Shown: positions 10,861 through 51,488 of the stretch, piece by piece
Position numbering within the stretch: the first letter of the stretch is position 1
How the letters are laid out: every line of letters begins with the position of its first letter
DNA from: an uncultured Chthonomonadaceae bacterium
GTDB taxonomy: Bacteria > Armatimonadota > Chthonomonadetes > Chthonomonadales > CAJBBX01
DNA: 64,000 bases
Direction: 5' to 3'
NCBI GenBank assembly: GCA_964429855.1
Contig: CAYSDM010000024.1
Location: 266-64,265, forward strand
Notes under the pieces: model-generated
The model's database searches: none
Seen by the model: the letters and a program-made list of their open reading frames with translations, nothing else
What the model was told of the DNA's origin: nothing
Made by a program: the position numbers and the translations under genes

Positions 10861-10955
10861 GTATCGCCCTCGGTCTGGCGCGATTTCTCTTTCTTGCCTT
10901 TCTGGCGCTCTTTCTTCTCTATCTCGTGTGGCTCATTCGCCGCGATCTGGATTAG
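10857..10955 (+). CDS. 32-aa single-TM micro-protein, translationally coupled to the FhaA-like gene (below the ORF-track cut-off)
   Basis: ATGA start/stop overlap at 10857-10860. Translation MSIALGLARFLFLAFLALFLLYLVWLIRRDLD is a hydrophobic helix followed by RRD. Its stop is 3 nt before the PP2C start. Confidence 0.4.
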   Translation: MSIALGLARFLFLAFLALFLLYLVWLIRRDLD

Positions 10956-10958
10956 CGT

Positions 10959-14472: not shown

Positions 14473-14503
14473 CACGCAAAAACGGCGTTCAGGAGCATCT
14501 TGT

Positions 14504-19676: not shown

Positions 19677-19687
19677 GAACCGAATCT

Positions 19688-20230
19688 ATGCGACGCCCGT
19701 TACCGATTCTGATACTATCGCTGCTGATCCTCTTCGGCGGAGGACTGGGCTTCTGGTACGCCAGTTCCCGTCCGCCACAGCCCCCTACGCCCCCGACACC
19801 CGTTCAGAAGGGCGAAGTCGAGATCACTCGCCCCGGACAGACCGGAAATGATGTCACGCTCAAGCCGGAGAAGCGGCAGATTCCCCCCGGCAGCAGCCAG
19901 ATCGCGCAGACACTCGAAGCCCTCTTCGAGACCGCGCAGGACAATAAGGGAACCAGCGCCTTTCCGAAAGGCGTGAAGCTGCACAGCGTCAAGATCGAAA
20001 ACGGGGTCGCCACAATAGACCTCAGCGCAGACTTTCAGGGAGTTAATCAGCAGGGAGACACAGGGGAATCGCTGGCGTATAACGCGCTGCGAAAAGCGCT
20101 GGCGCAGTTCCCCGAGGTCGAGAAGATGCGGGTTCTCGTGGACGGCAAACCTTTCGAAGGCGAACACAGCGGAGCATGGATGGATATTCCGGTACGCGAC
20201 CCCAGCACGGCGTCGGGAAGCAATCCCTGA
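19688..20230 (+). CDS. GerMN domain protein
   Basis: N-terminal TM, then LEALFE....FPKGVKLHSVKIENGVATIDLSADF...ALRKALAQFPEVEKMRVLVDGKPF. Located next to an amidase gene. Confidence 0.7.
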   Translation: MRRPLPILILSLLILFGGGLGFWYASSRPPQPPTPPTPVQKGEVEITRPGQTGNDVTLKPEKRQIPPGSSQIAQTLEALFETAQDNKGTSAFPKGVKLHSVKIENGVATIDLSADFQGVNQQGDTGESLAYNALRKALAQFPEVEKMRVLVDGKPFEGEHSGAWMDIPVRDPSTASGSNP

Positions 20231-21075
20231 TGCCGGAAGCGCGTCCCATCGGGATATTCGATTCAGGGGTTGGCGGTCTGACGGTAGCAGGCGCGCTGCT
20301 GCGACGCCACTCCCGCCTTCCGATTCTCTATGTGGCGGATCAGGCGCATGTTCCCTATGGCGGTCGTCCGCTGGAAGAGATTCGCGGCTTTGCGACCGCC
20401 ATCAGCGCGTTTCTGGCGCGGCAAAACTGCCGCGCCATTCTTATGGCGTGCAACATCTCTTCGGCAACCGCGCTGCCCTCCGTCTCGCAGTCTCTCTCCC
20501 CGCTTCCAGTTCATGGGATGATCGCCCCGGCTGTCCGCCGCGCGCTGCAATCGCTGGCAGTGTCGCAATCCGAAAATGCGCCCCGGATCGGCGTTCTAGC
20601 GACCGCCGGAACGGTGCAGAGCGGAGCCTACGCCGTCGCGCTGCACTCCCTGAACAGGCGTTGTCAGGTGACGCAGGTTCCCTGTCCGAAGTTCGTTCCG
20701 CTGGTGGAAGCGGGAGAGATAGAGAGCGCGGCGGCGCGGGAAGCTGCCTGCGAATACCTGACTTTGCTGGCAGAGTCGCGCTGTCAAACCGTAATCCTCG
20801 GCTGTACACACTACCCTTACCTGCTTCCCACGCTCCAGAGAGTTGCAGCAGACCTCTTTCCGTCGCCGGTCACCTTCATTGACCCGGCGGAGGCGCTTGC
20901 CGACGCTCTGCCAATCCCTATGGATCCCGACGACATCTCATCTCCTCTGCGCCTGCTGCTGACGACCGGCGATCCGGAGCATTTCCGTCGTCAGATACCC
21001 CGTTTCCTTCCGGATGTCTCCTGCGAGGTGCGCGCCGCCCGCTGGCAAACGGACGGATCACTGCAAATTGCCTGA
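20230..21075 (+). CDS. murI: Glutamate racemase
   Basis: IGIFDSGVGGLTV. Catalytic Cys motifs ILMACNISSA and VILGCTHYP. ATG 20230 overlaps the GerMN stop (TGATG). Confidence 0.9.
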   Translation: MPEARPIGIFDSGVGGLTVAGALLRRHSRLPILYVADQAHVPYGGRPLEEIRGFATAISAFLARQNCRAILMACNISSATALPSVSQSLSPLPVHGMIAPAVRRALQSLAVSQSENAPRIGVLATAGTVQSGAYAVALHSLNRRCQVTQVPCPKFVPLVEAGEIESAAAREAACEYLTLLAESRCQTVILGCTHYPYLLPTLQRVAADLFPSPVTFIDPAEALADALPIPMDPDDISSPLRLLLTTGDPEHFRRQIPRFLPDVSCEVRAARWQTDGSLQIA

Positions 21076-21418: not shown

Positions 21419-22918
21419 GTGAGTCTCATGTTTACCTGCCGAGTCTGTGGACGTTCTATAGCGGAGCCAAACCCGGAGAATCGCTACTGCCCCTACTGTG
21501 GAACCGCGTTCGTCCTCTCCTGCACCAATGAGCTTTGTGGAAACCGCGCGGATGGCATCGTCGTCCGCCGCAGCGCGACCTGCGGACAGTGCGGCGCGCT
21601 CTACCGCTATGCTCCCTCCAGCGGACTGCCGGTCCTTGTGCGTCACCTTGGACCGTTTCTTCCCCCGGAAGAGTCTGCGTCCGTGGCGGCCCAAACCGAA
21701 TCGCCCGCATTTCTCCAGGACCTTCTGCCAGCAAGCGGCAATCCTTTCAGCGATTCCGCCCTGCTCTCGCAGCAGCCTCCCGACATCTCCATCCCCGAAA
21801 AAGAGGCGGATTTTGCGGTCAATACGCGCCTGCACGATGTCGAAGCGCGGCATGGACGCATCTATCTGGTTCCTCAAAACGGGATGGTACAGGCGCTGGA
21901 TTACGAGTCCCTGACCCGCCTCAATTTCTGGGCGGGAGAGGTGCTGCCAAACTGGGTTCCCACTAATCCGCAGCCGGTAAAACTTCAGGTCTCTGAAACC
22001 ATCGTCTATGTGTTGCATCGGGGAGCCATCAGCGGTTACGACGCGGGCAACGGCAAAGCGATCTTCTCCCTCACCGTCAACGACCTGCGCGATATCCACT
22101 GCCTGCTCGTGCGTAACCGGCTGCTGGTGGTCGGCACGGCGGGAGATCAGAAAGAGTATGCGCGGCTTTTCGACATCGAACATCTGTGCGATGCCCGCAC
22201 TCCCGCCAAACGCCCGCTATGGGAGGGCGAGGTGCGCGGAAGCATCGCGCCGGGACAGGCGCTTCCAGCGAAACGACTGGGCGTTTTTGGCGGCTACTTC
22301 TACCTGATCTCCCGCAGCAGCCAGCTTCTTGCCCTGCCGATGGAGGGCGGCGGCTTTGAAACGATGTATGACAACTGGGGATCGCGCTCCATCCACGCCT
22401 GGACGATGAATGAGAGAGCAGGCATACTGTTCCTCTCCCCGCCCACCCCGCAGGGCTACTACTCGCTGGTGACCTTCACGCCGGGAACCGGAAAACCGGT
22501 CTCCAACGAGACTCAGTTGATGACGGTTCGCCCGCGCGAAAAGCCGCGCAGCGTCCTGCTCTGGGATGAAGACATCCTGCTGCTGGATGAGGCGGGAAGC
22601 CTGCAGAGACTTCCCCTGATCAATCCCAACAACCCGACGGCGAACTGGGGCGCGCTGACCGGTCTGCAGAATATTGCCGACCTCTATCCGCCTCTCCTGA
22701 TTCCCTGGGGCAAGCAGATGCACTTCGTTATGCAGGTAAAGGAGCAGCTATCTCACTCTTTCCGCCATGTTCCGCTGAGCAAGGCGTCTACCGGCTTCAG
22801 CGCCAAACTGCCGGCATCTCCCTCGGCGCGAGACGATGTGCGAGCTATCTACTGTGGTCCGAATATCTACGTGTGTAATATGACCAATGGGAACATTAAA
22901 CGACTACCTCTTCGCTAG
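21419..22918 (+). CDS. Double zinc-ribbon + PQQ/BamB-like beta-propeller protein (cluster gene A)
   Basis: CRVCG..14..CPYCG and CTNELCG..13..CGQCG at the N-terminus. Repeated strand patterns follow: IYLVPQNGMVQALD, VYVLHRGAISGYDAGNGK, FYLISRSSQLLALP, ILLLDEAGSLQRLP, IYVCNMTNGNIKRLP. The start could instead be ATG 21428. Confidence 0.7.
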   Translation: MSLMFTCRVCGRSIAEPNPENRYCPYCGTAFVLSCTNELCGNRADGIVVRRSATCGQCGALYRYAPSSGLPVLVRHLGPFLPPEESASVAAQTESPAFLQDLLPASGNPFSDSALLSQQPPDISIPEKEADFAVNTRLHDVEARHGRIYLVPQNGMVQALDYESLTRLNFWAGEVLPNWVPTNPQPVKLQVSETIVYVLHRGAISGYDAGNGKAIFSLTVNDLRDIHCLLVRNRLLVVGTAGDQKEYARLFDIEHLCDARTPAKRPLWEGEVRGSIAPGQALPAKRLGVFGGYFYLISRSSQLLALPMEGGGFETMYDNWGSRSIHAWTMNERAGILFLSPPTPQGYYSLVTFTPGTGKPVSNETQLMTVRPREKPRSVLLWDEDILLLDEAGSLQRLPLINPNNPTANWGALTGLQNIADLYPPLLIPWGKQMHFVMQVKEQLSHSFRHVPLSKASTGFSAKLPASPSARDDVRAIYCGPNIYVCNMTNGNIKRLPLR

Positions 22919-24464
22919 GCGCGTAAGCCGCGCCCGATCCGGCTCTCCCGGACGTCGGACACTGCTGTTTCCGGCGCTGATGATGCTCCTTTCACTGGGA
23001 CTGCTCTCCCCGCAGTCTGCTCTTTCGCAGACGCCTTATCGGGGCGACTTTTTCGATGTCTATCAGGAGATCACGCGCCAGCTTGCCACTCAATACAGGA
23101 TGGTCTGCAACCGACGTCTGCATGTGGTGCTGGTGCTGGACGTGTCGCGCAGCACGCAGCAAAACGGGATGGAGATCCGGTTCGGTCAGATATGGTCGAA
23201 GATGTGGGATAACTTCCTGCGCGATGGCGATATGGTGACGCTGCTTCCCTTTGCGTCCAATTCGCTGCCGACATCCGGTCCCTTCAAGAAATCCGACAAG
23301 AGCGGTTTTGACTCGGCGGTGGCGAAAGCGAAGAAAGACACTGCGCAGGATACCGGAACCGCGCTCTACACCGTGCAGCAGTCTGCACTGACAGAGGCGA
23401 AGCGCATTGCGGAGTCGGATAAAGACCGCGCCGTACTGGTGCTGATGTTCACCGATCTCGACGGTCCCAATGTCACGGCGAACACTCTGACTCAGGAGAA
23501 CAATGTCCGGGACACGGTCATCCCTGAGTTGATGAAAGAGTTCACGGTAGGCAGCCCGAAGAAGGAGCCGGCGCAGCCCCGCCCCACCCCGACGCCCGGT
23601 CAGCCTGCGCCCGGTCAACAGGGAACGCCTCCGCCCCCGGGTCTGCTGTTGATGCACAAGAAGTTCTACTCCATCCAGTCGGATGATCGAAAAGGCGCGT
23701 CTCCGCTCTGGCTTCACTCCGCGATGGAGTCGAAATGGCAGCAGAAGAAGGAGCAGGCGGTTTCACGCAAGATCGAGTCGCGTCCTACGGAGCCTCCTCC
23801 TCCTCCGGAGCCTCAGCCTGACCGCCGCCCGATCATTCGTCTGCTGGGTCTTCTGATCGGCTTTCTTGGATTTGCGTTTCTGCCGTTCCTGCGCTTCCGC
23901 GTGAAGGTGGTTCCCTCCGGCATCTCTCCCATCGGCGACACCGATAAAAAGGTCTCCGCCTATGGCAAGGTCACCGTCGCCGCGTGCAACACCGCCGAAA
24001 CGCCGGAGCCGCGCGATCTGTGGCTGCCCCTCCCCTACAGTAGCGCGACCCCGGAGCCGCTTATCACCATTAAAGGGCTGAAACCCGGCTCCTGCGTGGT
24101 TGAGAAGATTGGCGGTCATATGCTGACACCAGACGGAGAGGCTGCCAGCACCGTAGATATTCCCTACGGCGAGTCGGAGACGATTCGTGTCGGCATACGT
24201 CCCAATGAACTCTATCCCCTGCAGATTGTTCCGGGTTCCTGGATGGAGGGGAAACTGATCCCGCTTCTGATGACGATGCTCTTCTTCCTGTTCGGCTTTA
24301 TCGTGCTGGTGATCGGTCTGGCGATGAAAGCGCCGGAGCAGCCGGTGGCTCCAGAGCCGGAGCCTGCGATCACCGATGTCTGTCGCGCCACCGGCGGCAG
24401 CCTGATGGAGAGCGGCAGGATCGTTGTCTCGGAACTCAAATCATCGTCTGAAAATCGGGCATAA
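22887..24464 (+). CDS. vWA (MIDAS) domain membrane protein (cluster gene B)
   Basis: Signal/anchor RRTLLFPALMMLLSLGLLSPQSALSQ. MIDAS DxSxS in VVLVLDVSRST, then GTALY and VLMFTDLDG. Pro-rich linkers, and TM segments IIRLLGLLIGFLGFAFLPFL and LIPLLMTMLFFLFGFIVLVIGLAM. The start is uncertain and overlaps gene A by 32 nt. Confidence 0.7.
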   Translation: MGTLNDYLFARRVSRARSGSPGRRTLLFPALMMLLSLGLLSPQSALSQTPYRGDFFDVYQEITRQLATQYRMVCNRRLHVVLVLDVSRSTQQNGMEIRFGQIWSKMWDNFLRDGDMVTLLPFASNSLPTSGPFKKSDKSGFDSAVAKAKKDTAQDTGTALYTVQQSALTEAKRIAESDKDRAVLVLMFTDLDGPNVTANTLTQENNVRDTVIPELMKEFTVGSPKKEPAQPRPTPTPGQPAPGQQGTPPPPGLLLMHKKFYSIQSDDRKGASPLWLHSAMESKWQQKKEQAVSRKIESRPTEPPPPPEPQPDRRPIIRLLGLLIGFLGFAFLPFLRFRVKVVPSGISPIGDTDKKVSAYGKVTVAACNTAETPEPRDLWLPLPYSSATPEPLITIKGLKPGSCVVEKIGGHMLTPDGEAASTVDIPYGESETIRVGIRPNELYPLQIVPGSWMEGKLIPLLMTMLFFLFGFIVLVIGLAMKAPEQPVAPEPEPAITDVCRATGGSLMESGRIVVSELKSSSENRA

Positions 24465-24506
24465 CGTCCTTCGTATAATCCCATTCCCCTGACGGGAGGA
24501 GTATCC

Positions 24507-24824
24507 ATGGCAGGACTTTTCGGAGATATGATGGCTCTGATCTGGATCGCGCTGATGGTGATCGGAATGATCTTTCTGGTCTACATGGTGCTTTTCTGGA
24601 TCTACTTCGGGATCTGTAAACTGAACGGACCGGTCGCAATCCGGATTGCGTGGACAGTCGGCGTTCTCAGCCTGCTGATCGTGCTCGCTTTCATCTTTCC
24701 CTTCCAGGCTCCCTATTTCAATCCGCTCAGCGGGGATATAGGTTCGCTGGTCAACATGGCGATTGTGGCGGTGATCTCGATGTTCTTTCTGATTATCGTC
24801 TGGGTGACCAAACCGAGTCTGTAA
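24507..24824 (+). CDS. Small polytopic (3-4 TM) membrane protein (cluster gene C)
   Basis: 105 aa, almost entirely hydrophobic helices. GGAGGAG SD 6 nt upstream. Confidence 0.6.
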   Translation: MAGLFGDMMALIWIALMVIGMIFLVYMVLFWIYFGICKLNGPVAIRIAWTVGVLSLLIVLAFIFPFQAPYFNPLSGDIGSLVNMAIVAVISMFFLIIVWVTKPSL

Positions 24825-24927
24825 GGTGTTCCTTCGTTCGCTTCCGGCGAAATAGCATGTATCGAATCAGAGGCTGCGCTCCGCGGCGCGCGGAAGCCCC
24901 TCTCACGCATTGTCAAGGAGACTGCAC

Positions 24928-27900
24928 ATGCTGCGTCCTGCACTGGTAATTGCCCTCGGCGGCACCGGCACGAACATCGTGCTCCGTCTGCGCGAACGCT
25001 TCCATATGATGTATGGAACTCCCGATCCGGAGGGCGTGCGCTATATTTTCGTAGATACCGACACGAAAAATAATCTGAGCCGGAGAGAGCTTCAGGGCTA
25101 TGCGGGTCGTACTATCGGGATCGCGGTCGGTCCCAACACCCTGAACGATCTGCAGATCCCCAACTCTCCTACGTCGCAGCGGCTTCGACTGGACGACTGG
25201 TTTGACCCCGACCTTCGCGGGCGGTTGACCAATCAGAGCTTTCAGGCGGGCGTTGGCGGGGTGCGTATGTACGGGCGGCTGGTGCTGCTGGCGGCGGATC
25301 AACTGCGGCAGCTTACGGAACTGATCAGCAATGACATTCAAGCGCTTCGCCGTAACGCCGCCGGAAACGATCCCGGCTCCCTGCACATCTTCGTCGCATC
25401 CTCCTCTGGAGGCGGAACCGGCAGCGGCTCCTTCATTGACATGGGCTATCTGACCCGGCTGATACTGCAGGACTTAGCGGTTCCGGGAGGCGTCTGCGAA
25501 CGTGAGGGGCTGCTGGCAATCGCCGTGCCGACCCTCGTTCCCGCGCCGCAGCAGGCGCGCAACTCCGCCGCCATGCTCTCCGAAATGGACTACTTCTGCG
25601 AGCCGGGAAATATCTTCCAGGCGGTCTATATTGATCGCCCCCTGCCGGAGAGCATTGGACGGGAAGCCCCCTACGACTATATTCTGCTCTCCTCCCCGAC
25701 CCAGGGAGATCAGGTGCTCAGCGAAAATCCCGTTCAGGCGATGGGGCTTCTGGAGAGCAAAATGGCGGACTATATCTTCATCCGCCTGACCGAACCCGGA
25801 CGCCTCGGCGGTCTGCTGCGCGATGTCCGCACCAACTGGCAGACCACTCCCCGCGACAACCGGGGCTATCCCAACCGCTTTATGACCTTCGGCGTCAGCA
25901 TCCGTCAGTTCCCCGTCGGTCTGGTGGAGATGCTCGGTTACCGTTACGCCATCCGCAACTTCACCTGGGGATGGCTGAAGCGACCCCGCGAGGGCGACTC
26001 CATTCTGGACGACTCCGAACTGGCAACCAGACCGGATATACAGCAGGCGTACACCAACGATCTGGCGGCTCTGCGCAAGCTAATCGGTCTGCCATCGGTG
26101 CATGAGCAGACCGGCAAGCAGCCCCGCGATGCCGTGAACGACGCGCTCTACGCCGAACTGATCCAGACCCAGCAGGAGGCGCTGGAGGCCTCTCTTCGCA
26201 GCCGCGCCAACGACGGCAAGGTGGACGATCTGTTCCAGTACTCCGGTGCGGATCAGCCCGTAGCTCCCGGCTCTCCCGGTTATGTTGCTGGAACGATCAG
26301 CCGTAACGCCACGCGCCTGATGAATCCCAATGAGCCTGCCAGTCTGTTCAATCGCATCCGCGATTACCTGTATGCGGCAGCATTTGATCGAACGCGAGGA
26401 CCGCGCTATGCCCAGCGACTGGCGCGCGACCTGGTGGAGGAGATGCGCCGCGAAGAAGAGTTCATGGATGAAGTGCTGCGCGCCGCCGGAATGGTGGGAA
26501 CCGGCGGAACCGGCGGAGGCGGTCTCAACCGCGCACAGAAGGTGCGCCGCGATTTTCTGCTGCTATTCTGGGCAGACACGGCGGCAAAGCGGGAGCGCGG
26601 CGGCAGTGGCGGCGGAGCCAGCGGCCCCTATGCCAACCGACGGTTTGAGACCAGCCTGTTGGAATCCAAGAAGTTTATCTATGGCACGCTGCGGGATAAG
26701 CTTCTGGTCGGCGGTGAAAACCTGGAAGGACGCTTCAAGCGACTCTCCGCCTATATCGAAGCCTGGGCGAATCAGGCGGAGATGTCGGCGGCGGACAATG
26801 AGAAGCTGGTCGAGAACCTGCCCTACGGCACGATCTATCCGAAAGACCGCATTGAAGAGAAGTGGAAGAACCTGACCCCGACCGTCTCGCAGGATAGTCT
26901 GGAGCCGCTTCAGCGTCAAACCCGCAGCCAGCAGTTCGGCGTGGATATGCCCAAAGACCCACGTGGCGCGCCGGACTTTGCCCCGTTTGAGAACATCGGC
27001 GAACAGATTCGCGCCGCGCTGCGATCAGAGGCGGGAGAGTCCGCCAGCTCGATCTACGGAGAATCGGTGCTGCGCCTGATCGCCGAGATCAACGAAGGAA
27101 ACCTGGAGCCGACATGCCAGCAGATGGCGTCGGAGAGCCGCCCGCTGCTGAATCTGCGGCTGGACGCGCCGGGATACGCCGAACTGCTCAACAGCCGCAC
27201 CTCCTTCGGTCAGCCGACCTACCTCTGGTTCGCGATGGCAAGCCCGGAAGCGGATTTCAACTCCTATCAGGCGTTCTGGACAAGCACCCTGCGCGCCGCG
27301 CAGGGGATCACCCCGGTGGTGCGCGCCAATCCCGACGCCCCCATCCGCGACGACCTGAAGATCAAAAATGGCAGCATTGCAGCCCTGATATTCGTCCGAG
27401 CCGCCTTCCCCTCGCGCATTATCAACCAGTATGAGCAGGATGATCGCTGGGGACTGCTCTTCCCGCCCAATGCGACGACGATCACCACGCCCTTCACGCA
27501 GACCGGCATCCTCCTGCCGCCCCCGCTTGCCGTGTTGGACGAGGCGCGCGTACTGCTGATGCTCGGCGAGACTCTGCGAGTCATGCCCAACGACCCGAAC
27601 GAGTTTGCGACCGAACCCAAAATCACCTGGGGCGGCGCGGAGCACACGTTCGAGTATCAGCTCGGTCCGTATGAAGTGGAGCGAATGCGCTACCCGAAGA
27701 ACGACTTTGAGCGCGCCGCCTATCTTCTGGCTGTCAACGAGAAGGCTCTCAGCGCGCTGCGAAAAGCTCTCAACCTGCGCGCCGGAGATATGAACCAGCG
27801 AGGCATTATCGCGGAGAAGATCGTTCAGGAGATACACAAACTCAACGACCGTATCCTTAACGCCCCCGGCGGCGCGATGCAGGGCTACTACGACAGCCTC

Positions 27901-28122
27901 GATCTTGGCGGCATCAAGTATCCGGAATCGCGCAAGATGCTGTTCGAAGGCGCAAAAAAACTCGGCATTGACCTGTTCATCATAGACCCCAGTCTGCACC
28001 CCTGGGCGAAACCAAGCGATGCCGACAGTCTCTGGCGATGCAACAAGTGCAACTATGTCCTGGGAGCCGAGGTGCCGGATATGCAGGGCGAGTGTCCTAA
28101 CTGCGGTCATCCTAACCGTTAG
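24928..28122 (+). CDS. Large tubulin/FtsZ-superfamily GTPase-like protein with C-terminal zinc ribbon (cluster gene D)
   Basis: T1-like VIALGGTGTNIV, FVDTD, and the tubulin signature in VASSSGGGTGSGSFIDMGYL. C-terminus CNKCN..16..CPNCG. AAGGAG SD at 24915-24920 supports ATG 24928 over the track's TTG 24910. Confidence 0.85.
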   Translation: MLRPALVIALGGTGTNIVLRLRERFHMMYGTPDPEGVRYIFVDTDTKNNLSRRELQGYAGRTIGIAVGPNTLNDLQIPNSPTSQRLRLDDWFDPDLRGRLTNQSFQAGVGGVRMYGRLVLLAADQLRQLTELISNDIQALRRNAAGNDPGSLHIFVASSSGGGTGSGSFIDMGYLTRLILQDLAVPGGVCEREGLLAIAVPTLVPAPQQARNSAAMLSEMDYFCEPGNIFQAVYIDRPLPESIGREAPYDYILLSSPTQGDQVLSENPVQAMGLLESKMADYIFIRLTEPGRLGGLLRDVRTNWQTTPRDNRGYPNRFMTFGVSIRQFPVGLVEMLGYRYAIRNFTWGWLKRPREGDSILDDSELATRPDIQQAYTNDLAALRKLIGLPSVHEQTGKQPRDAVNDALYAELIQTQQEALEASLRSRANDGKVDDLFQYSGADQPVAPGSPGYVAGTISRNATRLMNPNEPASLFNRIRDYLYAAAFDRTRGPRYAQRLARDLVEEMRREEEFMDEVLRAAGMVGTGGTGGGGLNRAQKVRRDFLLLFWADTAAKRERGGSGGGASGPYANRRFETSLLESKKFIYGTLRDKLLVGGENLEGRFKRLSAYIEAWANQAEMSAADNEKLVENLPYGTIYPKDRIEEKWKNLTPTVSQDSLEPLQRQTRSQQFGVDMPKDPRGAPDFAPFENIGEQIRAALRSEAGESASSIYGESVLRLIAEINEGNLEPTCQQMASESRPLLNLRLDAPGYAELLNSRTSFGQPTYLWFAMASPEADFNSYQAFWTSTLRAAQGITPVVRANPDAPIRDDLKIKNGSIAALIFVRAAFPSRIINQYEQDDRWGLLFPPNATTITTPFTQTGILLPPPLAVLDEARVLLMLGETLRVMPNDPNEFATEPKITWGGAEHTFEYQLGPYEVERMRYPKNDFERAAYLLAVNEKALSALRKALNLRAGDMNQRGIIAEKIVQEIHKLNDRILNAPGGAMQGYYDSLDLGGIKYPESRKMLFEGAKKLGIDLFIIDPSLHPWAKPSDADSLWRCNKCNYVLGAEVPDMQGECPNCGHPNR

Positions 28123-28143
28123 GCAGAGCGAATCCGCGCGTTC

Positions 28144-28175
28144 CCGCAGATCGCGTCTGGCGGCTCGATCTGCGG
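28144..28175 (+). other. Intra-operon stem-loop between the GTPase and protease genes
   Basis: Perfect 10-bp stem ccgcagatcg / cgatctgcgg with a 12-nt loop and no U-tract. Confidence 0.4.
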
Positions 28176-28201
28176 AGAGACGCTAGAGCGAGGAGAAAAC
28201 G

Positions 28202-29107
28202 GTGCGCTACTACAAACAGGACTGGGTGGCTATGGGAGTGAAACCGGGAGGCGGCTCGACCGGCAGCATTCCGCTGGCAGCGCTCTTTTCCGTGATTCTG
28301 CTGGCGGGGCTGGGGGTTCTGGCGTTTTTCCTGGGCAACTTCAGCGGATTTGGCGGCGGCAATCCCGGCGATGCGACTGTCTTCATAGACTGCCAGTGGC
28401 AGATTAATCTGGCGGATGGACGGCAGGTACAGACTGGAGGAAGCGGTTCCGGCACGATCATCCATCCCAACGGCAAAGTCATCACCAATCACCATGTCGT
28501 CTTCATGAACAGCCTGAAGACACAGGAAGGCGAGATACCGCTCGATCAGGAGGTCGAGGCGTCGAAGATCACCGTCTACCTTCGCAGCGGAACCAACGAG
28601 GTGAAGAAGATGGAGGCGCAGGTCTTAGATACCGACCGCACCGGAAAGACCTGGACGGGCGCATCGCTGGACGATATGTGGCACGACTGGGCAGTTCTTC
28701 AGATCAAGAATCCCCCGCCCGATCTGCCCTATGTACGCATCGGGGACAGTCGCAAGGTGGGGCAGAACAACAAGATCACTGTCTTCGGCTTTCCGCTGGG
28801 ACAGAAATACCAGGTCGAAGAGGGCAAAGGTCCAGCGATGACGGTGGTTCCCGGCGTGGTGAAGCGGATCGTTCCGCCCAACCCCAACACCTTCTTCTAT
28901 TTCGTTCACAGCGCGAATGTGCAGCCCGGCAACAGCGGCGGTCCGCTCATCAACGACGCCTCGAAGGAGCAGGTCGGAATCAATACACGGATTTCCGTCA
29001 TTCGCAGCATGGAGGGAGCCTCCAGCGATGAACACTATACGATCCCAACCCACAAACTGGAAGAGGTCTGGAAGAAGCACGCGAAGTCACAGGCGTTCGG
29101 CAAGTAG
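28202..29107 (+). CDS. Membrane-anchored trypsin-like (S1/HtrA-type catalytic domain) serine protease (cluster gene E)
   Basis: N-terminus MRYYKQDW + TM. Complete triad context: His in GKVITNHHVV, Asp in HDWAVLQI, Ser in GNSGGPLIN. GTG start with AGGAG SD. Confidence 0.85.
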   Translation: MRYYKQDWVAMGVKPGGGSTGSIPLAALFSVILLAGLGVLAFFLGNFSGFGGGNPGDATVFIDCQWQINLADGRQVQTGGSGSGTIIHPNGKVITNHHVVFMNSLKTQEGEIPLDQEVEASKITVYLRSGTNEVKKMEAQVLDTDRTGKTWTGASLDDMWHDWAVLQIKNPPPDLPYVRIGDSRKVGQNNKITVFGFPLGQKYQVEEGKGPAMTVVPGVVKRIVPPNPNTFFYFVHSANVQPGNSGGPLINDASKEQVGINTRISVIRSMEGASSDEHYTIPTHKLEEVWKKHAKSQAFGK

Positions 29108-29139
29108 TCCTCTGATCGCAACAGGGCAGGAGCAAGCGA

Positions 29140-29985
29140 ATGCGATACTATAAACAGGACTGGGCCGTGTCCGGTCCGGTCAAAGAGACCAGCGGCGGAA
29201 GCATTCCGCTCGCCATCCTATTCTCTTTGATCATCTTTATTGCGCTGGGAGTGCTGGCTTTCCTCTTCGGCGGCGCGCTTCCGTCTATCGGGCGCGAAGA
29301 CCTGAAGAATGTGGTGCTCATCATCAGCACGCAGTATCCGGGAGAACAGACGCGATTTTTCACCTCCGGCGTGCTGATTAAGTCGGATGGGACTCTCATC
29401 ACGACCTACAAGAACCTGAACCGGGCAGATCAGGGCGGTAATCTGGTCAAACCAGAGAAGATCGTCGTGATCCTTCCGCCGGAGAAGCAGGGAGACCAGC
29501 CGCGCGAATTTGAAGCGCAGGCGCTGGATGCCAATAAGTCGCCGGAAGAGGCGCTCTCCAGCGATCTGGAGAAGATGTGGCACGACTGGGAACTGGTGAA
29601 GATCAAGAACCCGCCGAAAGGACTGCGCGCCCTGCCCATCGGCGACAGCGCCAGCATCAAGCCGCAGGATAAGGTCACGGTCGCCGGTCTCTCGCAGGCG
29701 CAGCAGCCCATGCGATACGAAGGCATCAATATCGCCGACGGGCAGATCACCAAAGTGGTGCCGCCGAACAATCCCCGCAACTCCATCTACTTTGCGCACG
29801 ATGTCAAGGTGGATCGCGGCAGTTCGGGCAGCGCGGTGGTGGACCAGCGCACCGGACAGATGATCGGTCTGCATATCAAAACCGATACCGACGAGCGAAC
29901 CGGACGTTCGGAGTACTTCGCCGTCCCGTCGCGCAAGCTCGCGGACGCCTGGCGCGCCGCGGGGCTGGATAACTATCCGAAGTAG
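29140..29985 (+). CDS. Paralogous membrane-anchored trypsin-like protein lacking the catalytic His (probable pseudo-protease; cluster gene F)
   Basis: Same MRYYKQDW + TM N-terminus. The aligned His position reads GTLITTYKNL, Asp is kept (HDWELVKI), and the Ser context is GSSGSAVV. Confidence 0.75.
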   Translation: MRYYKQDWAVSGPVKETSGGSIPLAILFSLIIFIALGVLAFLFGGALPSIGREDLKNVVLIISTQYPGEQTRFFTSGVLIKSDGTLITTYKNLNRADQGGNLVKPEKIVVILPPEKQGDQPREFEAQALDANKSPEEALSSDLEKMWHDWELVKIKNPPKGLRALPIGDSASIKPQDKVTVAGLSQAQQPMRYEGINIADGQITKVVPPNNPRNSIYFAHDVKVDRGSSGSAVVDQRTGQMIGLHIKTDTDERTGRSEYFAVPSRKLADAWRAAGLDNYPK

Positions 29986-29999
29986 CAGGAGACGCACCT

Positions 30000-32474
30000 A
30001 TGAACTGCATGGTCTGTCAGCGACAATTCGACCCCAACGATCCCGATATCTGTTACTGTCCGCGCTGCGGATGGTCGCTGGGACAGTTGAGCGTTGCGCT
30101 GCATCCCGAAACCCTGATTCTTGCCGGTCCGCGTCCGGTTCCACTGACCCTGATCTGCCGTAATACCGGATTCGGGAAGCTGAAGTGCGAACTGGATCGC
30201 GACAGCCTGCCGCCGGGCGTTACGCTCGCGCAGGGCAGCGAGTCCTCGCTGCAACTCACCTCGCAGCCTCAGGAGATTCGCCTGCTGGTAGACCCGCGAA
30301 ATCTGGAGAAAAATCTGTCGGTGCTGCCGGTGGTGCTCCACTCGTATGATCGGCGCGGACAGCATCGGATGGATTTTCGTCCGGCGTCTCTGGAAGCGGG
30401 GCGCGTCGCGCAGCCCTGCGCCCTTCCTATTCAGAGAATGCGCTTCGGTCCGGTGCAGATTTTTCAGGAGATGCTGCTGTTTCGCAGCCTTCAGCGCAAA
30501 CAGAAACTTCAGGTGCAGAATCTGGGCGATGTGGAGGTGGTGCTGGCATTGACGGCGCCCTCCGGCTTTCAGCTTCGTTATGGCAGCCAGCCTCCCGCCG
30601 GATCGTTCACCATGCGTTTGAGCGGAACGCCGGTTCCAGAAGAGATCACGGTCGAAGCGACCACAACCGGCGCGCCCGTTCAGCGCGGAGGCGCGCCGCT
30701 GATTCTGCGCGTGGAGGTGGCGGATCTGCCGGATGACAGCCGGGATATTCAACTGCTCTGGATTCCGGAAGAGACGGTCGAGACCCAGCGTAAGCGATGG
30801 ATCATCGGCATTGACTTTGGCACGGCCAAGACCGCCATCTTCTACAGCGACTGCAACCTGCCCCAGCCGCAGCCCCGCCCCGCCAGATGGCTGATGCCGA
30901 CCGGTGATGTTCGCATCAAAGTTCCGTCGGTCATCATGTATCCGTACACCAGCCCGCTTCCGCCGCGCTGCGGTTGGGATGTGCCGGAGACCGCCGAGGT
31001 GGACGGGCGCGATGTGGTGGTGCGCTCCATTAAGAAGCGGCTGACGGACGAGACGGCGATTGAATACGAGTTGTCGGACGGAACCGTTCTGACGGTGGAT
31101 CAGGTGGTCGAACACTATCTGCGGTTTATTGTGGGCAAGTTCCGGCAGCAGGATGCTTTTCGGGGCGAAGGCAACCCGTTTGACAACGCGCAGGTAGTGT
31201 TGAGCCTGCCGGTGCGCGATGATGAGGAGCAGTACGAGGAGCAGAAGCGGCGCACGATCAATGCGGCAGTGCGTGTCGGGTTAAATGAAGACCAGATTCT
31301 CTGCTATACGGAGCCGGAGTGCGCGGCGGTAGACTTTCTGCGTCGGCGGCAGGAGCTAGGCATGACGGTGCAGCAGGGCGACCTGCTGTGCGTCTTCGAC
31401 TGCGGGGCGGGAACGACGGATATCTGCCTGCTTCAGCTTCACTACAGCGGCGGCGAACTCAGCTTCACCCGACGCGCGCTGGCGGGATTCCCCTTCGGCG
31501 GAGACGTGATTGACGAACTGCTGACCCAGTATGTGCTGGATGAGTGGCTGGAGAAGGGCAAGTTCCACGAGTATAACGCCGACTTCTCAATGTTCCATCT
31601 CAAGGGCGAAGCGCAGGCGCGCACACGGCGGTTCCTGCTCTCTGCGCTGCGCCGGGTCAAGGAGCGTCTCGCGTTTGTAGACCCGGATCAGCTTCAGCCC
31701 AACAACGAGCAGAGCGTCTCCTTCAGCTACAACAACGATCCGGCCGACGCGATCCCGATCACCTGGTCTCTGATCGAGACGCTGTTCCGTCCCTATGTGC
31801 AGAAGATTCTCAGCGAGGGCTTTGATCCCAATGATATGATTCCGGACTGGACGAAAGAGCAGCCGCAGGGGCGTCCGGTGGGAGTGAAGCTGCCTTCGCT
31901 CAACTCCGTGCTGTGGCGCGAGGGGCTGGATGCCGTGGACATCCGCTGGCTCTGTCTGACGGGAGGAAGCAGTTTTATCCCGTTCCTGGTGAAGATGCTG
32001 CAGAATATGTTCCCGCACGCCGCGCTGGTTCCTCCGGTCACCATGATCCCGGATATGCTGCGTGAGCAGGATACGCCGATGACCCTCAATGTGGCGCAGG
32101 GCGCGGCGGCGCGCCCCCTCTACCGGGTCGAGGGACAGCTTCCGCTGGACTACCTGCTTCAGTATAGCTCCAGCAGCGGAATGACCGAACCGACCGTTGT
32201 GCTGACCAAAGGCGGCGCGCCGGGCAAGATCGGACCGCAGCAGGCGTACCGGCTGATGGCGGGTGATACCGGCACGCTCCGGCTGATCGCGCAGGTTGGC
32301 GGAGAGCGTGGAACCGTCTACAAGAAAATCCTGAAAAACCCGTATGAGGACAAGCATATCAGCGTGCTGGCGCAGGTCGAATACGGACGTGATATGAAGG
32401 TCTATCTGACCATCTCCTTCGGGGTAGACAACGACGTGATACCTATTCTGGAGAAGATCGCCGTCGTCGAATAG
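30000..32474 (+). CDS. Hsp70/actin-fold ATPase with N-terminal zinc ribbon and two beta-sandwich-like domains (cluster gene G)
   Basis: CMVCQ..11..CYCPRCG. Phosphate-1 IIGIDFGTAKTAIFYS, phosphate-2 VFDCGAGTTDICLLQL, adenosine motif LCLTGGSSFIPFLVKML. Short beta-rich C-terminus with no helical lid. Confidence 0.85.
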   Translation: MNCMVCQRQFDPNDPDICYCPRCGWSLGQLSVALHPETLILAGPRPVPLTLICRNTGFGKLKCELDRDSLPPGVTLAQGSESSLQLTSQPQEIRLLVDPRNLEKNLSVLPVVLHSYDRRGQHRMDFRPASLEAGRVAQPCALPIQRMRFGPVQIFQEMLLFRSLQRKQKLQVQNLGDVEVVLALTAPSGFQLRYGSQPPAGSFTMRLSGTPVPEEITVEATTTGAPVQRGGAPLILRVEVADLPDDSRDIQLLWIPEETVETQRKRWIIGIDFGTAKTAIFYSDCNLPQPQPRPARWLMPTGDVRIKVPSVIMYPYTSPLPPRCGWDVPETAEVDGRDVVVRSIKKRLTDETAIEYELSDGTVLTVDQVVEHYLRFIVGKFRQQDAFRGEGNPFDNAQVVLSLPVRDDEEQYEEQKRRTINAAVRVGLNEDQILCYTEPECAAVDFLRRRQELGMTVQQGDLLCVFDCGAGTTDICLLQLHYSGGELSFTRRALAGFPFGGDVIDELLTQYVLDEWLEKGKFHEYNADFSMFHLKGEAQARTRRFLLSALRRVKERLAFVDPDQLQPNNEQSVSFSYNNDPADAIPITWSLIETLFRPYVQKILSEGFDPNDMIPDWTKEQPQGRPVGVKLPSLNSVLWREGLDAVDIRWLCLTGGSSFIPFLVKMLQNMFPHAALVPPVTMIPDMLREQDTPMTLNVAQGAAARPLYRVEGQLPLDYLLQYSSSSGMTEPTVVLTKGGAPGKIGPQQAYRLMAGDTGTLRLIAQVGGERGTVYKKILKNPYEDKHISVLAQVEYGRDMKVYLTISFGVDNDVIPILEKIAVVE

Positions 32475-32508
32475 TCTACTGTGCGAACCATGACGCATGA
32501 GGGATCCC

Positions 32509-34524
32509 ATGAAGATGACCCCCTATTCCATGCCATGTTTAAGCGTCAGGCGACTGCGCCTGCTGCCGATTCTTGCGCTGCTGCTGCTGTCGCTGCCGTT
32601 AGACGCGCAGTCAGTCTATACCCCCTGGCAGAAGGGGAACGGAAAGATACAACCGACCGGTGACAGGCAGGCGATAATACAGCCGCCGAAGGCCGCCGGG
32701 GAGTATGCCTTCATTCAGTTGAACGAACTCAAGGGAAAGAGCTGGAGCGTTCAGGCTAAAGTCATTCTGGAGGGTGTCGTTCCGACGAATCTGCCGAAAA
32801 ATGCCATCACTCCGATCTTTCAGCTAAACAATAAGATGGCTGAACCGGGTAAGTGGAACTACCAGATGGCGCTGAGTCTGGACTGGGGGCAGGATGGCAA
32901 ATCCACGCCGCGCATCGCGCTCCCTCAGGGTCTGAGACGCGACTTTCAGCCGATCCAACTGCCTCAGGTCTTCCATGTTCGCGTCCAGCGCAAAGAAGAT
33001 CAGGTAACCATCGCGCTGCTGAAAGAGAGCAGCGAGCCGCCGCTGAGCGAAGTCACTCTTCCCGCCACCGGAGATACCCTCTACATGACATGGGGTTCGC
33101 TGGGGACCGATACGAAACACACCACCTTTGAATGGCGGATCAACGATCTGGAGATCAAGCAGGGAGAAGCCGCCAGCCCCGGCGTGACTCCCCAACCCGT
33201 ACAGAATCAAGGGGGGGCGGCGGAGGGGCAGCCACAGGCGGAGGATCCCCGCGTGAGCAAGGCGACACAGCAGGCGGGAGGCGCGCTCGTGCTGGGCGCG
33301 CTTGCGCTGCTGGCGTCGCTGCTGGCAATTGTGCTGACCGTCGTGACCTTTGTGCTGAACCGCGGAAAAGGAGCCAAAGATTCCGGGGAACTGCCCGGCA
33401 AAATCACCGCCATCGAAACGCGGGTGAATACGCTCAACAGTCAGATGGCGACCAAACAGGATATCCAGAACAGCCGGGAGCAGATCACGAAAGACCTGAC
33501 AGAGAGGGTGCAGCAGGGTTTCGTAAAACTGGATGATCGGATGAAGGCGGCGGAGGCGGCGGTTCAGTCCGCCAGCTCCTCCGCGCCGCCGTCCTCCAGT
33601 GATGGACTGGACTATCGTGTGCAAAGCTGTGAGGCGCAACTGCAGCAGATCGCCGGGCAGATTCAGAATCAGAACAGCGACATCAGCAACCTTCGCGCCA
33701 CGCTGAATACGCTGATGGATAAGATCACTCTCCTGAATCGCGCGCTCCAGCAGATGGAGCAGGCGCAGCGCAACGCCCAGCAGGTTCAGACGACGGCTGC
33801 CGTCTCCCCCTCCACGCCAACTGCGAACGCCGGGACCGTGGAACCCGGTCTGGAAGATCGTTATCATACGACCCATCCGGCGACAACGCCAGCGGTCACC
33901 ATCATCCAGAGCGGGCCGAGCGGGACGCCGCCCGCCGATAACGGCGGAACGGTTGTCTCCTCCACGCCGCCTGCATCCTCTAACGCTCCTCTCTGGGAGA
34001 CACAGTGGAGGCAGCTCCGGCAGAGCCTCAACGCCCATCGCGCTTCGGTAACCGTCGAGAGCTTCAGCAAAGACCTGGATATGCTGGAGACCTACTTCAA
34101 GACGCTGATCGAAAAGTGGGAGACGCTCAAGCCGCCCGCCGAAGACGCGCATATGTGGGATGAGTGGCTGTTCAGTAATCTGGACTACCATCTCTATCAG
34201 GCGCCGCGCCTGACCTCGCTCGGAGAGGTTTCGCCGGAGATTCGAGGCGCGCTGGAGCGGATGCGCTCCGTGATCGAACAGGCGCAGGAGGCGCGCAAAG
34301 CGCAGTTGCGCGAGTGGGAACTGGAACGAATCGAGGGCGTTCCCGGCAAAGACCGCGCCACCGCCTATGTCATGGAAGCCGACCCGGAGAACCCGCCGGA
34401 GCCGACCACCGATCCGCGAAAGGACTACACCTTCTCGCATATCGTTCCCGGCAGAGGCGGATACCGGTTCCGGGGGCGCGTGCTGCGGAAAACGCACGCC
34501 GTTTTCTATCAGTTCAAGGGATAG
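32509..34524 (+). CDS. Single-pass receptor-like protein: signal peptide, beta-rich ectodomain, TM, long coiled coil, C-terminal domain (cluster gene H)
   Basis: Signal peptide [52 protein letters not shown]-rich heptad region ([24 protein letters not shown] ... [29 protein letters not shown]). GAGGGA SD supports ATG 32509. Confidence 0.7.
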
Positions 34525-34541: not shown

Positions 34542-36101
34542 GTGACGACTGCCGCCGCGCCGTTTGCGCTGGAGATGCGTAACATCGCCAAGTCCTACCC
34601 CGGCGTTCGCGCGCTGGAGGATGTGAGTCTTCAGGTTGCGCCGGGAGAAGTTCACGCGCTGGTCGGCGAAAACGGAGCGGGCAAGTCTACCCTGATGAAG
34701 ATTCTCGCCGGGGCGCAGCCGAAAGACTCCGGCTTCATTCTGCTGAACGGACACCCGGTGAACATCGTCAGCCCGCAGCAGGCGATGGATCTCGGCATCT
34801 CCATCATCTACCAGGAGTTTAACCTCGTCCCCTACCTGAACGCCGCCGAGAACATCTTTCTCGGGCGAGAGCCGGGGGCGAAGATTCCCGGTTTTGTGGA
34901 CTTCGGGCGCATGTACCGCGAGTCGCAGGCGATCATTGACCGTCTCGGTGTCCCGGTCAATGTTCGCACACCCGTCAATCGCCTCTCCGTCGCGCAGCAG
35001 CAGATGGTCGAGATTGCCAAGGCGACCTCCCGTAAAAGTCGCATCATCGTGATGGATGAACCCTCCGCCACCCTGACGGAGCATGAGCTTCAGAGCCTCT
35101 TCAACCTGATCCGCCAACTGAAGCGCGAAGGCGTCGCCATCGTCTACATCTCCCATCGGCTGGAAGAGATTTTCGAGATATGCGACCGTGTGACGGTGCT
35201 TCGTGACGGACACTGGATCGCCACCGAGAATATCGGCGATCTCAAACGCGAAGATATCATCCGCCTGATGGTAGGACGCGAACTCAAACAGATGATTCCC
35301 AAAGAGACCGCTCCGATCGGCGCGCCGGCTCTGGAGGTGCGGAATCTGTCGCGTAAAGGCGTGCTGCGCGAGATTAACCTGACCGTTCATCAGGGAGAGA
35401 TTCTCGGGCTGGCGGGACTTGTGGGAGCCGGTCGCACGGAACTGGCGCGCGCCATCTTCGGAGCCGATCCGATAGACGGCGGATACATTCAGCTTTTTGG
35501 GAAACCGGTGCGAATCCGTTCTCCGCGACAGGCGATCCAGATGGGGATTGGCCTGGTGACCGAAGATCGAAAGGCGCAGGGGCTGGTGCTGGGCATGGCG
35601 GTGCGCGAAAACATCACTCTCGCCAACCTGCCCGCCCTATCGGTACTGAACTTCATTCAGGCGGGGCGCGAACGCGAAGTCGCCCGTAAATATGTCAACG
35701 ACCTCTCCGTGAAGACGCCCACCATTGAGCAGACGGTACAGAACCTCTCCGGCGGCAATCAGCAGAAGGTGGTTCTTGCCAAGTGGCTCTTTACACAGTC
35801 GAAAGTACTGATCTTCGATGAGCCGACGCGCGGCATTGATGTCGGCGCAAAAACCGAAATCTATCAGTTGATGAACAGACTGGCGGCGCAGGGCGCAGCC
35901 ATTATCATGATCTCCTCGGAACTGCCGGAAGTGCTCGGAATGAGCGACCGTATTCTGGTGATGCATGAGGGAAGAATTGCCGGTGAGTTATCTCGTCAGG
36001 AGGCGACCCAGGAGAAGATCATGCATCTGGCGACAGGCGGAGACCACGAGGAGGAGTCGCCATCGCCGAACAGGGAGAAAATAGACGAGACCAAAGCCTG
36101 A
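34542..36101 (+). CDS. Sugar-type (RbsA/MglA-like) tandem-domain ABC transporter ATP-binding protein
   Basis: GTG 34542 with GAAGGGAG SD. Walker [24 protein letters not shown], second-half signature [15 protein letters not shown], Walker [12 protein letters not shown]. No permease or binding-protein gene is adjacent. Confidence 0.85.
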
Positions 36102-47434: not shown

Positions 47435-47436
47435 AG

Positions 47437-48576: not shown

Positions 48577-48588
48577 TGGGGGAACAAT

Positions 48589-51488
<2,900 letters not shown>

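Follow-up and report, generated by a model that had tools for sequence, protein, structure and literature searches.

A conserved membrane-associated cluster joining an FtsZ-like GTPase, an Hsp70 with a GrpE-like partner, a vWA protein and HtrA-like proteases in an uncultured Chthonomonadaceae bacterium

The stretch of DNA analysed here, referred to as the window, comprises 64,000 nucleotides (nt) from an uncultured Chthonomonadaceae bacterium (contig CAYSDM010000024.1 of assembly GCA_964429855.1) and carries at positions 21419-34524 a cluster of eight co-directional genes, A to H, in which an FtsZ/tubulin-like GTPase is encoded together with an Hsp70, a membrane protein ending in a GrpE-like domain, a von Willebrand factor A (vWA) protein and two trypsin-like proteins. 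The cluster had been delineated in an earlier reading of the nucleotide sequence without database searches (the sequence-only reading), and its gene coordinates, with gaps of 103 nt or less and one 32-nt overlap, were confirmed; the domain calls for A-H were likewise borne out by the Tubulin_2, HSP70, VWA and Trypsin_2 profiles, and by propeller matches in the case of A. The eight genes are listed below (aa, amino acids; TM, transmembrane helix).

Gene A, 21419-22918, + strand: 499 aa, cytoplasmic; two N-terminal Cys4 zinc ribbons and a BamB/PQQ-like beta-propeller
Gene B, 22887-24464, + strand: 525 aa; signal peptide, vWA domain, two TM
Gene C, 24507-24824, + strand: 105 aa; small polytopic membrane protein, three TM
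Gene D, 24928-28122, + strand: 1064 aa; FtsZl1/Tubulin_2 GTPase, long extension and zinc ribbon
Gene E, 28202-29107, + strand: 301 aa; single-TM trypsin/HtrA-like protease
Gene F, 29140-29985, + strand: 281 aa; paralog of E, catalytic His replaced by Lys
Gene G, 30000-32474, + strand: 824 aa; Hsp70 with an N-terminal zinc ribbon
Gene H, 32497-34524, + strand: 675 aa; signal peptide, ectodomain, TM, coiled coil and GrpE-like C-terminus

From A to H the intergenic distances are -32, 42, 103, 79, 32, 14 and 22 nt, and a GGAG-type Shine-Dalgarno sequence is found upstream of C, D, E, F and G, with none upstream of A, B or H. The long start of A (21419) is taken as right because the zinc ribbons it includes are conserved in orthologs, and for D a TTG at 24910 is a possible alternative start. 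Scanning for promoter and terminator consensus sequences gave counts at or near the shuffle expectation, with no convincing internal promoter or terminator, and the tRNA and Rfam scans returned no match. Besides their signal peptides, B and H span the membrane twice and once, respectively; C does so three times, and E and F once each. Cys4 zinc ribbons recur in the set, with two in A, one at the C-terminus of D and one at the N-terminus of G.

The gene order A-B-(C)-D-protease-...-Hsp70-GrpE-like is shared by 12 independent loci, mostly Armatimonadota-like, which comprise the window itself (JGI locus L001) and L002, L004, L005, L006, L009, L086, L087, L088, L097, L098 and L100 (L003 encodes the same D protein as L002). 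The D proteins of these 12 loci are only 25-50% identical, and the flanking genes differ entirely from one locus to another (glycosyltransferases, transposases, an AAA_21 ATPase, Imm1, tricarboxylic acid-cycle genes), the upstream cell-wall genes and the downstream ABC gene of the window being kept beside the cluster in no sister locus. Because the same order recurs with diverged D proteins and different flanks, the eight genes represent more than a chance run, and the proposal of the sequence-only reading that they form one functional unit is upheld; homologs of D, G, the protease and B co-occur across loci, a point that the reading had proposed for checking. The distribution is sparse: a word-indexed search of 5.8e9 proteins yielded no more than 22 homologs of D and 32 of G, the named relatives being Armatimonadetes, Capsulimonadaceae and Fimbriimonadaceae metagenome-assembled genomes (MAGs), and the full-length D subfamily was found in 4-5 of 185,579 species genomes, with Chthonomonas and Armatimonadia MAGs and one UBP9 MAG as the closest. 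At L005 the cluster is flanked by insertion sequence (IS)-type transposases (DDE_3, Y1_Tnp and DDE_Tnp_1, at L005:1344-9681 and 18370-19500), and a transposase stands between the B and D homologs, at the place of gene C.

D matches Pfam Tubulin_2 (PF13809) over residues 12-340 (E=2e-36; 126 bits, cut-off 27), a family that corresponds to the FtsZ-like 1 (FtsZl1) family of Makarova & Koonin (PMC2875224), the equivalence being stated in PMC9871819. The motifs T1 (GGTGTN), T3-like (GVGGVRMxGR) and T4 (GGGTGSG) are invariant among 18 homologs. An AlphaFold2 model of D (mean pLDDT 83.7) retrieved CetZ2, FtsZ and tubulin as the best Foldseek matches (∼340 columns, probability 1.00, TM-score ∼0.5 on the target); the 2010 alignment of the family had stopped at helix H5, whereas this model suggests that residues 1-350 make up a complete two-domain FtsZ-type core. 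Beyond residue 350, D continues for ∼700 aa that are helical and then alpha/beta, and it terminates in the Cys4 zinc ribbon (C1038-C1059). No T7-type catalytic loop of D was assignable from the alignment.

G scores 25.6 bits against the Pfam HSP70 cut-off of 20.6, and a profile of 27 G sequences matches the DnaK nucleotide-binding domain (NBD) with E=8e-27; the nucleotide-binding motifs DFGT, EPxxA, DxGxGTTD and GG are invariant. Its AlphaFold2 model (pLDDT 88.8) aligns by Foldseek with near-full-length DnaK over ∼600 columns (E=1e-22), and the layout comprises a Cys4 zinc ribbon (1-28), two beta-sandwich domains (30-255) that are seen in the model and have no Pfam fn3 match, an Hsp70 NBD (∼262-705) and a region resembling the beta substrate-binding domain (SBD-beta; 715-824), which is all-beta in the model and has no helical lid. 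G is therefore a genuine, lidless Hsp70. The zinc ribbons of A and G (21419-21500 and 30000-30080) are alike (CxxC ... [RY]YCPxCG), to the extent that the A-family hidden Markov model matches G-like open reading frames (ORFs) at ∼1e-4, and with the ribbon of D (28030-28122) they possibly serve a common docking or sensing role.

H consists of a signal peptide, an ectodomain (∼40-262), a TM helix (269-287), a cytoplasmic coiled coil and a GrpE-like C-terminal domain (∼585-675). The sequence-only reading had described a single-pass, receptor-like coiled-coil protein; the TM helix and coiled coil stand, but the GrpE-like C-terminus had been missed. No homolog of the ectodomain was detectable at any sister locus, whereas the last ∼170 residues are conserved at all of them; the C-terminal motif of H, PGxGGYRxxGRVLRxTxAVFY, is reduced across the sister loci to an invariant PGxGGY...L...A..Y, and it is reminiscent of the end of GrpE, where the motif is GY-x-x-x-R-x-[IL]-R-P-[AS]. 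When 1.84e9 representative proteins were searched exhaustively with HMMER, 90 relatives of this domain were collected; it is always C-terminal and is preceded by N-terminal parts of 130-1489 aa. Early tests of a GrpE relationship were negative or marginal: a seven-sequence HMMER profile gave a spurious BurrH repeat match against PDB and Pfam, the word-indexed search with the H domain found four relatives, none annotated, and hhalign with thin H profiles gave GrpE probabilities of 1.7-5%. With an 87-sequence H-family profile aligned to nine GrpE sequences, hhalign returned a probability of 88.7% and P=2.6e-6 over 78 columns, which correspond to E. coli GrpE 117-194 and take in the final bundle helix together with the beta domain, and in the controls 20 column-shuffled profiles gave P≥0.11 and the reversed alignment P=0.63. 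The nine comprised an E. coli GrpE sequence, 99.5% identical to an annotated grpE gene, and eight further annotated or homologous genes. By HMMER the likeness is marginal (4ani_A, E=0.47; PF01025 matched by one of the 87 members, at 0.003), and it became convincing only when the 87-sequence profile was compared with nine authentic GrpE sequences.

In every locus examined, those of distant members included, the H-family gene lies directly behind a G-like Hsp70 gene, and we hold with moderate confidence, as judged from sequence, that G and H are a cognate Hsp70/exchange-factor pair. Ending as it does in a GrpE-like domain, H is therefore predicted to be a membrane-anchored exchange factor for G, a putative activity that the adjacency of the two genes supports. 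H is tandem-duplicated in four loci, and tandem H-family pairs follow the Hsp70-like gene at L006:6696-8371, L086:16530-18878, L098:10001-12040 and L099:1880-3602; at L100 a second G-like gene follows H. GrpE works as a dimer, and the paired H paralogs might form heterodimers.

Both E and F match Pfam Trypsin_2 (E=2e-21 and 3e-16, respectively), and their NCBIfam matches are of Do/HtrA type, with scores far under the DegP, DegS and HtrA cut-offs and no PDZ domain match in either protein. E begins with a cytoplasmic tail (MRYYKQDW...) that is followed by a TM helix (25-43) and a protease domain with the triad H98, D162 and S245; by the positive-inside rule the protease domains of E and F would be extracytoplasmic. 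F has the same tail and TM helix, and Lys in place of the catalytic His (TTYKN versus TNHHV in E), so that it is probably an inactive pseudo-protease. The sequence-only reading had recognised the fold, the anchor and the pairing of E and F but not the probable loss of catalysis in F. F is specific to the window lineage, a single protease being present in every sister locus. The N-terminal YY is common to all 10 proteases compared, usually as RYYxxxW, and is flanked by basic residues; an aromatic peptide with basic flanks is the kind of sequence that Hsp70s bind. In the Chthonomonas calidirosea MAG copy the sole protease (L006:3491-4279) reads GGEGGP for GNSGGP, i.e. the catalytic Ser is changed to Glu, and its protease domain may have a non-catalytic role, or this copy may be decaying.

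The zinc ribbons of A are formed by C7/C10/C24/C27 and C35/C40/C55/C58, of which the first is invariant in eight orthologs, and the A profile matches beta-propellers (the designed Ika8 at 1e-5, BamB at 9e-4); PQQ_2 is present in four of the eight orthologs (best E=2e-5), and A homologs lie upstream of D in the 12 loci. In B, the signal peptide is followed by an extracytoplasmic vWA domain (Pfam VWA, E=3e-5, above the gathering cut-off), TM1 (316-334), a beta-rich cytoplasmic loop of ∼115 aa, TM2 (460-478) and a short tail. The metal ion-dependent adhesion site (MIDAS) is intact and conserved (D85-x-S87-x-S89 ... T ... D190), as is, invariantly, the Cys pair C74/C499, the second member of which is situated in the short tail. 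Homologs of C were found at L002, L007, L086 and L100, and C gave no Pfam, NCBIfam or PADLOC match. The cytoplasmic loop of B is conserved within the subfamily, and neither this loop, nor C, nor the H ectodomain has relatives beyond the close subfamily.

Seven of the 12 loci differ from the window in carrying a ZorAB-like gene pair between the protease and Hsp70 genes, at the position that F occupies in the window. The pairs are the following.

ZorAB-like pair, L002:14212-17291
ZorAB-like pair, L004:7665-10189
ZorAB-like pair, L009:14040-16750
ZorAB-like pair, L088:14058-16771
ZorAB-like pair, L097:4117-6827
ZorAB-like pair, L098:3849-6580
ZorAB-like pair, L100:4754-7461

The first member, MotA/ExbB-like and 590-730 aa in length, has a long tail, and its profile finds ZorA (8qyy; E=1.2e-6 over 270 colinear residues) as the best match among natural proteins in the PDB; the second is MotB/OmpA-like with a conserved TM Asp (MotB 6ysf, 6e-14; PADLOC ZorB1, 3e-22). 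The pair is often followed by a gene for a protein of ∼290 aa without known family. L100, the closest relative of the window (D 49% identical), carries the pair, and because seven loci including L100 have the stator and the protease is single elsewhere, the arrangement in the window, reached by loss of the stator and duplication of the protease to an inactive copy, is derived. The pair that stands in place of F in the nearest relatives lay outside the view of the sequence-only reading, which on the whole is partly supported. Zorya is an experimentally proven defence system in which ZorAB senses phage invasion and signals via its cytoplasmic tail (Hu et al. 2024, PMC11946911).

On the same strand upstream of A (17763-21075), and separated from it by a 343-nt gap, lie genes for an AMIN+Amidase_3 (AmiC-like) cell-wall amidase, a GerM-domain protein and glutamate racemase; adjacency to peptidoglycan genes is unique to the window locus. 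Downstream, a two-domain ABC ATPase gene (34542-36101, + strand) begins 17 nt past the H stop and may share a transcript with the cluster; because of this short distance the downstream border was set by synteny and not by spacing, and the gene is placed outside the conserved unit. Further upstream (9706-16066, + strand) stands a row of genes for an FHA protein resembling FhaA, a fusion of a PP2C phosphatase with beta-propeller repeats, a Ser/Thr kinase and a HEAT-repeat protein, and this row ends 5 kb upstream of A, with unrelated genes between, the kinase/PP2C pair itself lying 7-10 kb upstream. In the literature some FtsZl1 and vWA systems come with kinase/PP2C modules (PMC2875224, PMC7159879), and membership of the PP2C, kinase and FHA genes in the system, as in the kinase-containing operons of 2010, was considered and rejected, as they are kept in no sister locus. 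At 44267-50088 (+ strand) the window also encodes a PSCyt1/PSCyt2/PSD1 protein of 1055 aa that has a laminin-G domain, and a DUF1501 protein, a pairing characteristic of Planctomycetes-like genomes.

The distribution of signal peptides and TM helices fits an inside/outside layout in which the vWA domain, the H ectodomain and the protease domains face outwards and D, G and A remain inside, in agreement with the periplasm-facing sensor layer and cytoplasmic NTPases of the sequence-only reading. Our favoured reading, to which we would give about an even chance, is that the cluster is a self-contained, membrane-spanning conflict system of the anti-phage or abortive-infection type and constitutes a GTPase-less variant of the FtsZl1/Tubulin_2-vWA systems. 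It is favoured because of the sparse, context-independent distribution, the ectodomains for which sister loci have no detectable counterpart, the inactive enzyme copies, the association with IS elements and the Zorya-type module. In such a system the vWA domain, the H ectodomain or both would detect a disturbance of the envelope, and a peptidoglycan-bound, ZorAB-like proton motor may join in the sensing in the seven sister loci. The signal would cross the membrane through H, whose GrpE-like domain would alter nucleotide exchange on G, and the beta domain of G would then grip or release its clients, for which the protease YY tails, or else D, are the most plausible candidates. At the membrane D would assemble in a GTP-dependent manner and so cluster the complex, and clustering would turn on extracytoplasmic proteolysis, with the result that the cell's own envelope is damaged (abortive infection) or that proteins of the invader are cleaved; the part of F would be that of a regulator or decoy.

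Several observations weigh against this reading. The GC content is uniform over the cluster (0.59-0.61) with no anomaly, and its neighbours in the window are housekeeping genes (the amidase, GerM, MurI, the ABC ATPase, malic enzyme, G6PD, TsaD) and not a defence island. A defence role was one of the two alternatives offered by the sequence-only reading, which had pointed to a scan for known defence systems; the PADLOC scan of A-H gave only generic protease and coiled-coil matches and no system model, and NCBIfam likewise brought up no specific family. The cluster encodes no nuclease, NADase or pore-forming effector, and its sole enzymatic output, an HtrA-like protease, might just as well be used for quality control of the envelope. 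Searched with profiles of the sister-locus proteins, the window gave no ZorA or ZorB at E≤1, and neither the J-domain HPD motif nor a DnaJ Pfam match was found in A-H. The polymerisation of D, the trigger and the clients of G are steps that we infer, and we know of no experiment on any FtsZl1 system. On the choice between defence and envelope remodelling, the evidence leans to conflict without amounting to proof.

A more far-reaching version is put forward tentatively. It holds that the cluster represents an undescribed class of prokaryotic immune or signalling machine, in which a transmembrane GrpE-like receptor would turn an extracellular signal into nucleotide exchange on the Hsp70, the Hsp70 would control the FtsZ-like polymer and, via their tails, the proteases, and the sister loci would constitute a fourth Zorya-like kind in which ZorAB feeds a tubulin and an Hsp70 and not nucleases.

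The alternative that survives best is a housekeeping machine for the envelope or for membrane remodelling, and we regard it as possible, at well below an even chance. Here the FtsZ-like polymer and the Hsp70/GrpE pair would organise the vWA adhesin and the HtrA-like proteases for peptidoglycan or outer-membrane maintenance, for vesicles or for periplasmic quality control. Membrane remodelling was the proposal made for the family from its vWA, OmpA and TM-protein context (PMC2875224), and the window, in which the AmiC-like amidase, GerM and glutamate racemase genes precede the cluster on the same strand, would seem to fit it; these cell-wall neighbours are, however, conserved in no sister locus. 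The resemblance of E to the quality-control proteases Do, HtrA and DegS points in the same direction, as do the MotAB/TolQR-like stators and OmpA-type peptidoglycan binders of the sister loci, which are also typical of envelope maintenance, and the lack of both a toxin-type effector and a defence-island context. For a housekeeping function, however, the distribution is extremely sparse, and the ectodomains without detectable counterparts, dead proteases, IS flanks and exchange of modules (ZorAB in or out, the protease duplicated, H in tandem) have the look of an accessory, fast-evolving system. An improbable alternative is a membrane-tethered Hsp70 motor that moves or matures one client, where G and H would pull or fold the protease tails or the B loop on a scaffold of D, with a role in secretion or in the assembly of a surface structure. 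The mitochondrial import motor, with its membrane-tethered Hsp70 and the GrpE homolog Mge1, offers an analogy. The SBD-beta-like domain of G, the membrane anchor of the GrpE-like H, the invariant aromatic tail of E and F with its basic flanks and the conserved loop of B between the two TM helices would all suit such a motor; against it, the cluster has no conserved translocon, secretin or substrate gene and no J-domain to drive a power stroke, and the tubulin GTPase, the propeller protein and the optional ZorAB-like motor are left unexplained. That the genes are mere neighbours in a co-directional run without shared function is hardly credible, for although the run continues into the ABC ATPase and A, B and H have no clear Shine-Dalgarno sequence, the order is kept in twelve loci with different surroundings where the ABC and upstream genes are not, G and H are a putative cognate Hsp70/GrpE-like pair, and A and G have similar zinc ribbons.

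Since 2010, the role of the FtsZl1/Tubulin_2 family has been guessed as either membrane remodelling or conflict. The variant in the window is compact and dispenses with the GTPase/GAP1 layer, and its predicted cognate Hsp70/GrpE-like pair, assayable protease and candidate docking tail make the family testable. If the proposed signalling is true, a GrpE-like receptor would be a new transmembrane signalling route in bacteria, with a new job for an Hsp70 and a tubulin homolog. The sister loci link ZorAB-type motors to a completely different set of effectors, which bears on the wiring of Zorya-like sensors.

To place the cluster within its wider class, all ORFs of 85 Tubulin_2 loci were clustered. 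An Hsp70-like gene beside Tubulin_2 was also found in Acidobacteriota, WOR-3, Spirochaetota and Thermoanaerobaculia, where the companions are a zinc-ribbon protein, a 2-TM protein (vWA), a small polytopic protein and a GrpE+SH3+PEGA protein, with an FGE-sulfatase protein in one locus; GrpE+SH3+PEGA and FGE-sulfatase components are listed for conflict systems by Kaur et al. (PMC7159879). No Walker A GTPase was found in the Hsp70-containing Tubulin_2 loci of these other phyla. By hhalign, B matches the vWA proteins adjoining Tubulin_2 in Spirochaetota, Chloroflexi and Firmicutes at 94-96% (96% for the spirochaete set), A matches the same-position zinc-ribbon proteins of Acidobacteriota and WOR-3 at 47% probability in the zinc-ribbon region only, and the small polytopic proteins at the position of C in other phyla have no detectable homology to C. 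The cross-phylum core is demonstrably homologous for D, G and the vWA domain only, and is architectural for A and C; the trypsin-like protease is limited to the Armatimonadota-type subfamily. In the spirochaete loci L031, L046 and L048, Tubulin_2 is followed by a second, tubulin-like paralog of ∼800-870 aa (N-terminus IIVVGLGKFG...) and then by a canonical-type Hsp70 of 560 aa (PF00012, E=4e-109), and L031 also encodes a 3-TM FGE-sulfatase protein. The Firmicutes loci, with a vWA gene, the tubulin, two further genes, a zinc-ribbon Walker A GTPase and a large downstream gene, have the published layout of Kaur et al. When aligned by hhalign with the families of the window, the Firmicutes partners, including c43 (presumed from its position to be GAP1), gave no match (c43, P≥0.24), and the Firmicutes DO-GTPase family matched window proteins only at the level of the zinc ribbon (P=0.009-0.07, the C-terminal ribbon of D giving P=0.009).

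The combination of genes had not been recognised as a named system in the sequence-only reading, and precedents exist in two published sets, the FtsZl1 operons (PMC2875224) and the tubulin-vWA and HSP70-GrpE modules (PMC7159879). Makarova & Koonin (2010) described FtsZl1 operons with vWA, a P-loop GTPase, kinases and OmpA, and proposed membrane remodelling (PMC2875224). D belongs to this family and shares its T1 and T4 motifs and long helical C-terminal extension, and the adjoining vWA protein with intact MIDAS (B), the several TM proteins and the OmpA-type proteins of the sister loci extend the likeness. The divergent P-loop GTPase and the kinases are, however, absent from the cluster, as is OmpA (by Pfam), whereas the Hsp70, GrpE-like, trypsin-like and zinc-ribbon-propeller partners are not in the 2010 description.

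Kaur, Burroughs, Iyer & Aravind (2020) distinguished a GAP1-N2 type with three non-overlapping themes, i.e. tubulin with vWA, HSP70 with GrpE, and kinase with PP2C and vWA, and read the systems as conflict systems that are gated by NTP and act close to the membrane, in which the peptidases at the effector position are often catalytically dead (PMC7159879). The DO-GTPase that defines them is a TRAFAC-clade protein with Walker A and usually two N-terminal zinc ribbons, GAP1 is encoded after it, and an FNIII-repeat component also belongs to these systems (PMC7159879). The cluster resembles these systems in its tubulin with C-terminal helical region, multi-TM protein with extracellular vWA, HSP70 and GrpE, as well as in the zinc ribbons on regulatory NTPases, the membrane-proximal action and the trypsin-like peptidases with inactive copies. 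It differs in that the defining DO-GTPase and a candidate GAP1 are absent, a Walker A motif search of A-H having found none, so that there is no candidate for a DO-GTPase or for MoxR. Moreover, the themes are exclusive in those systems, whereas tubulin and HSP70-GrpE are combined in the cluster; its GrpE-like part is joined in one protein with a TM anchor and an ectodomain, and an Armatimonadota-like taxon is unmentioned by Kaur et al. Of the vWA-MoxR ternary systems, the MoxR partner was not found in A-H, which gave no AAA match either.

With DnaK-GrpE the cluster shares the nucleotide-binding motifs and SBD-beta-like region of G and, in H, the aligned last bundle helix and beta domain of GrpE, but G has no lid and possesses a zinc ribbon and a pair of beta-sandwich domains in addition, H bears an ectodomain and is anchored in the membrane, and a J-domain protein is lacking. 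E resembles HtrA/DegS in its N-terminal TM anchor, extracytoplasmic S1C-type domain and intact His-Asp-Ser triad, but it is without PDZ, has the cytoplasmic YY tail and is paired with a His-less paralog. The likeness to Zorya resides in the ZorA-like and ZorB/MotB-like proteins of the sister loci, whereas none of the ZorC, D, E, F or G effectors is present anywhere, the partners being a tubulin, an Hsp70, a GrpE-like protein and a protease; the sister loci may represent an undescribed Zorya-like type with tubulin/Hsp70 partners. No paper was found in the literature on the combination of tubulin, Hsp70 and trypsin or of ZorAB and tubulin. As compared with these systems, the cluster is an uncharacterised variant of the computationally predicted FtsZ-like/vWA family, which stands outside the DO-GTPase systems and is not categorically new.

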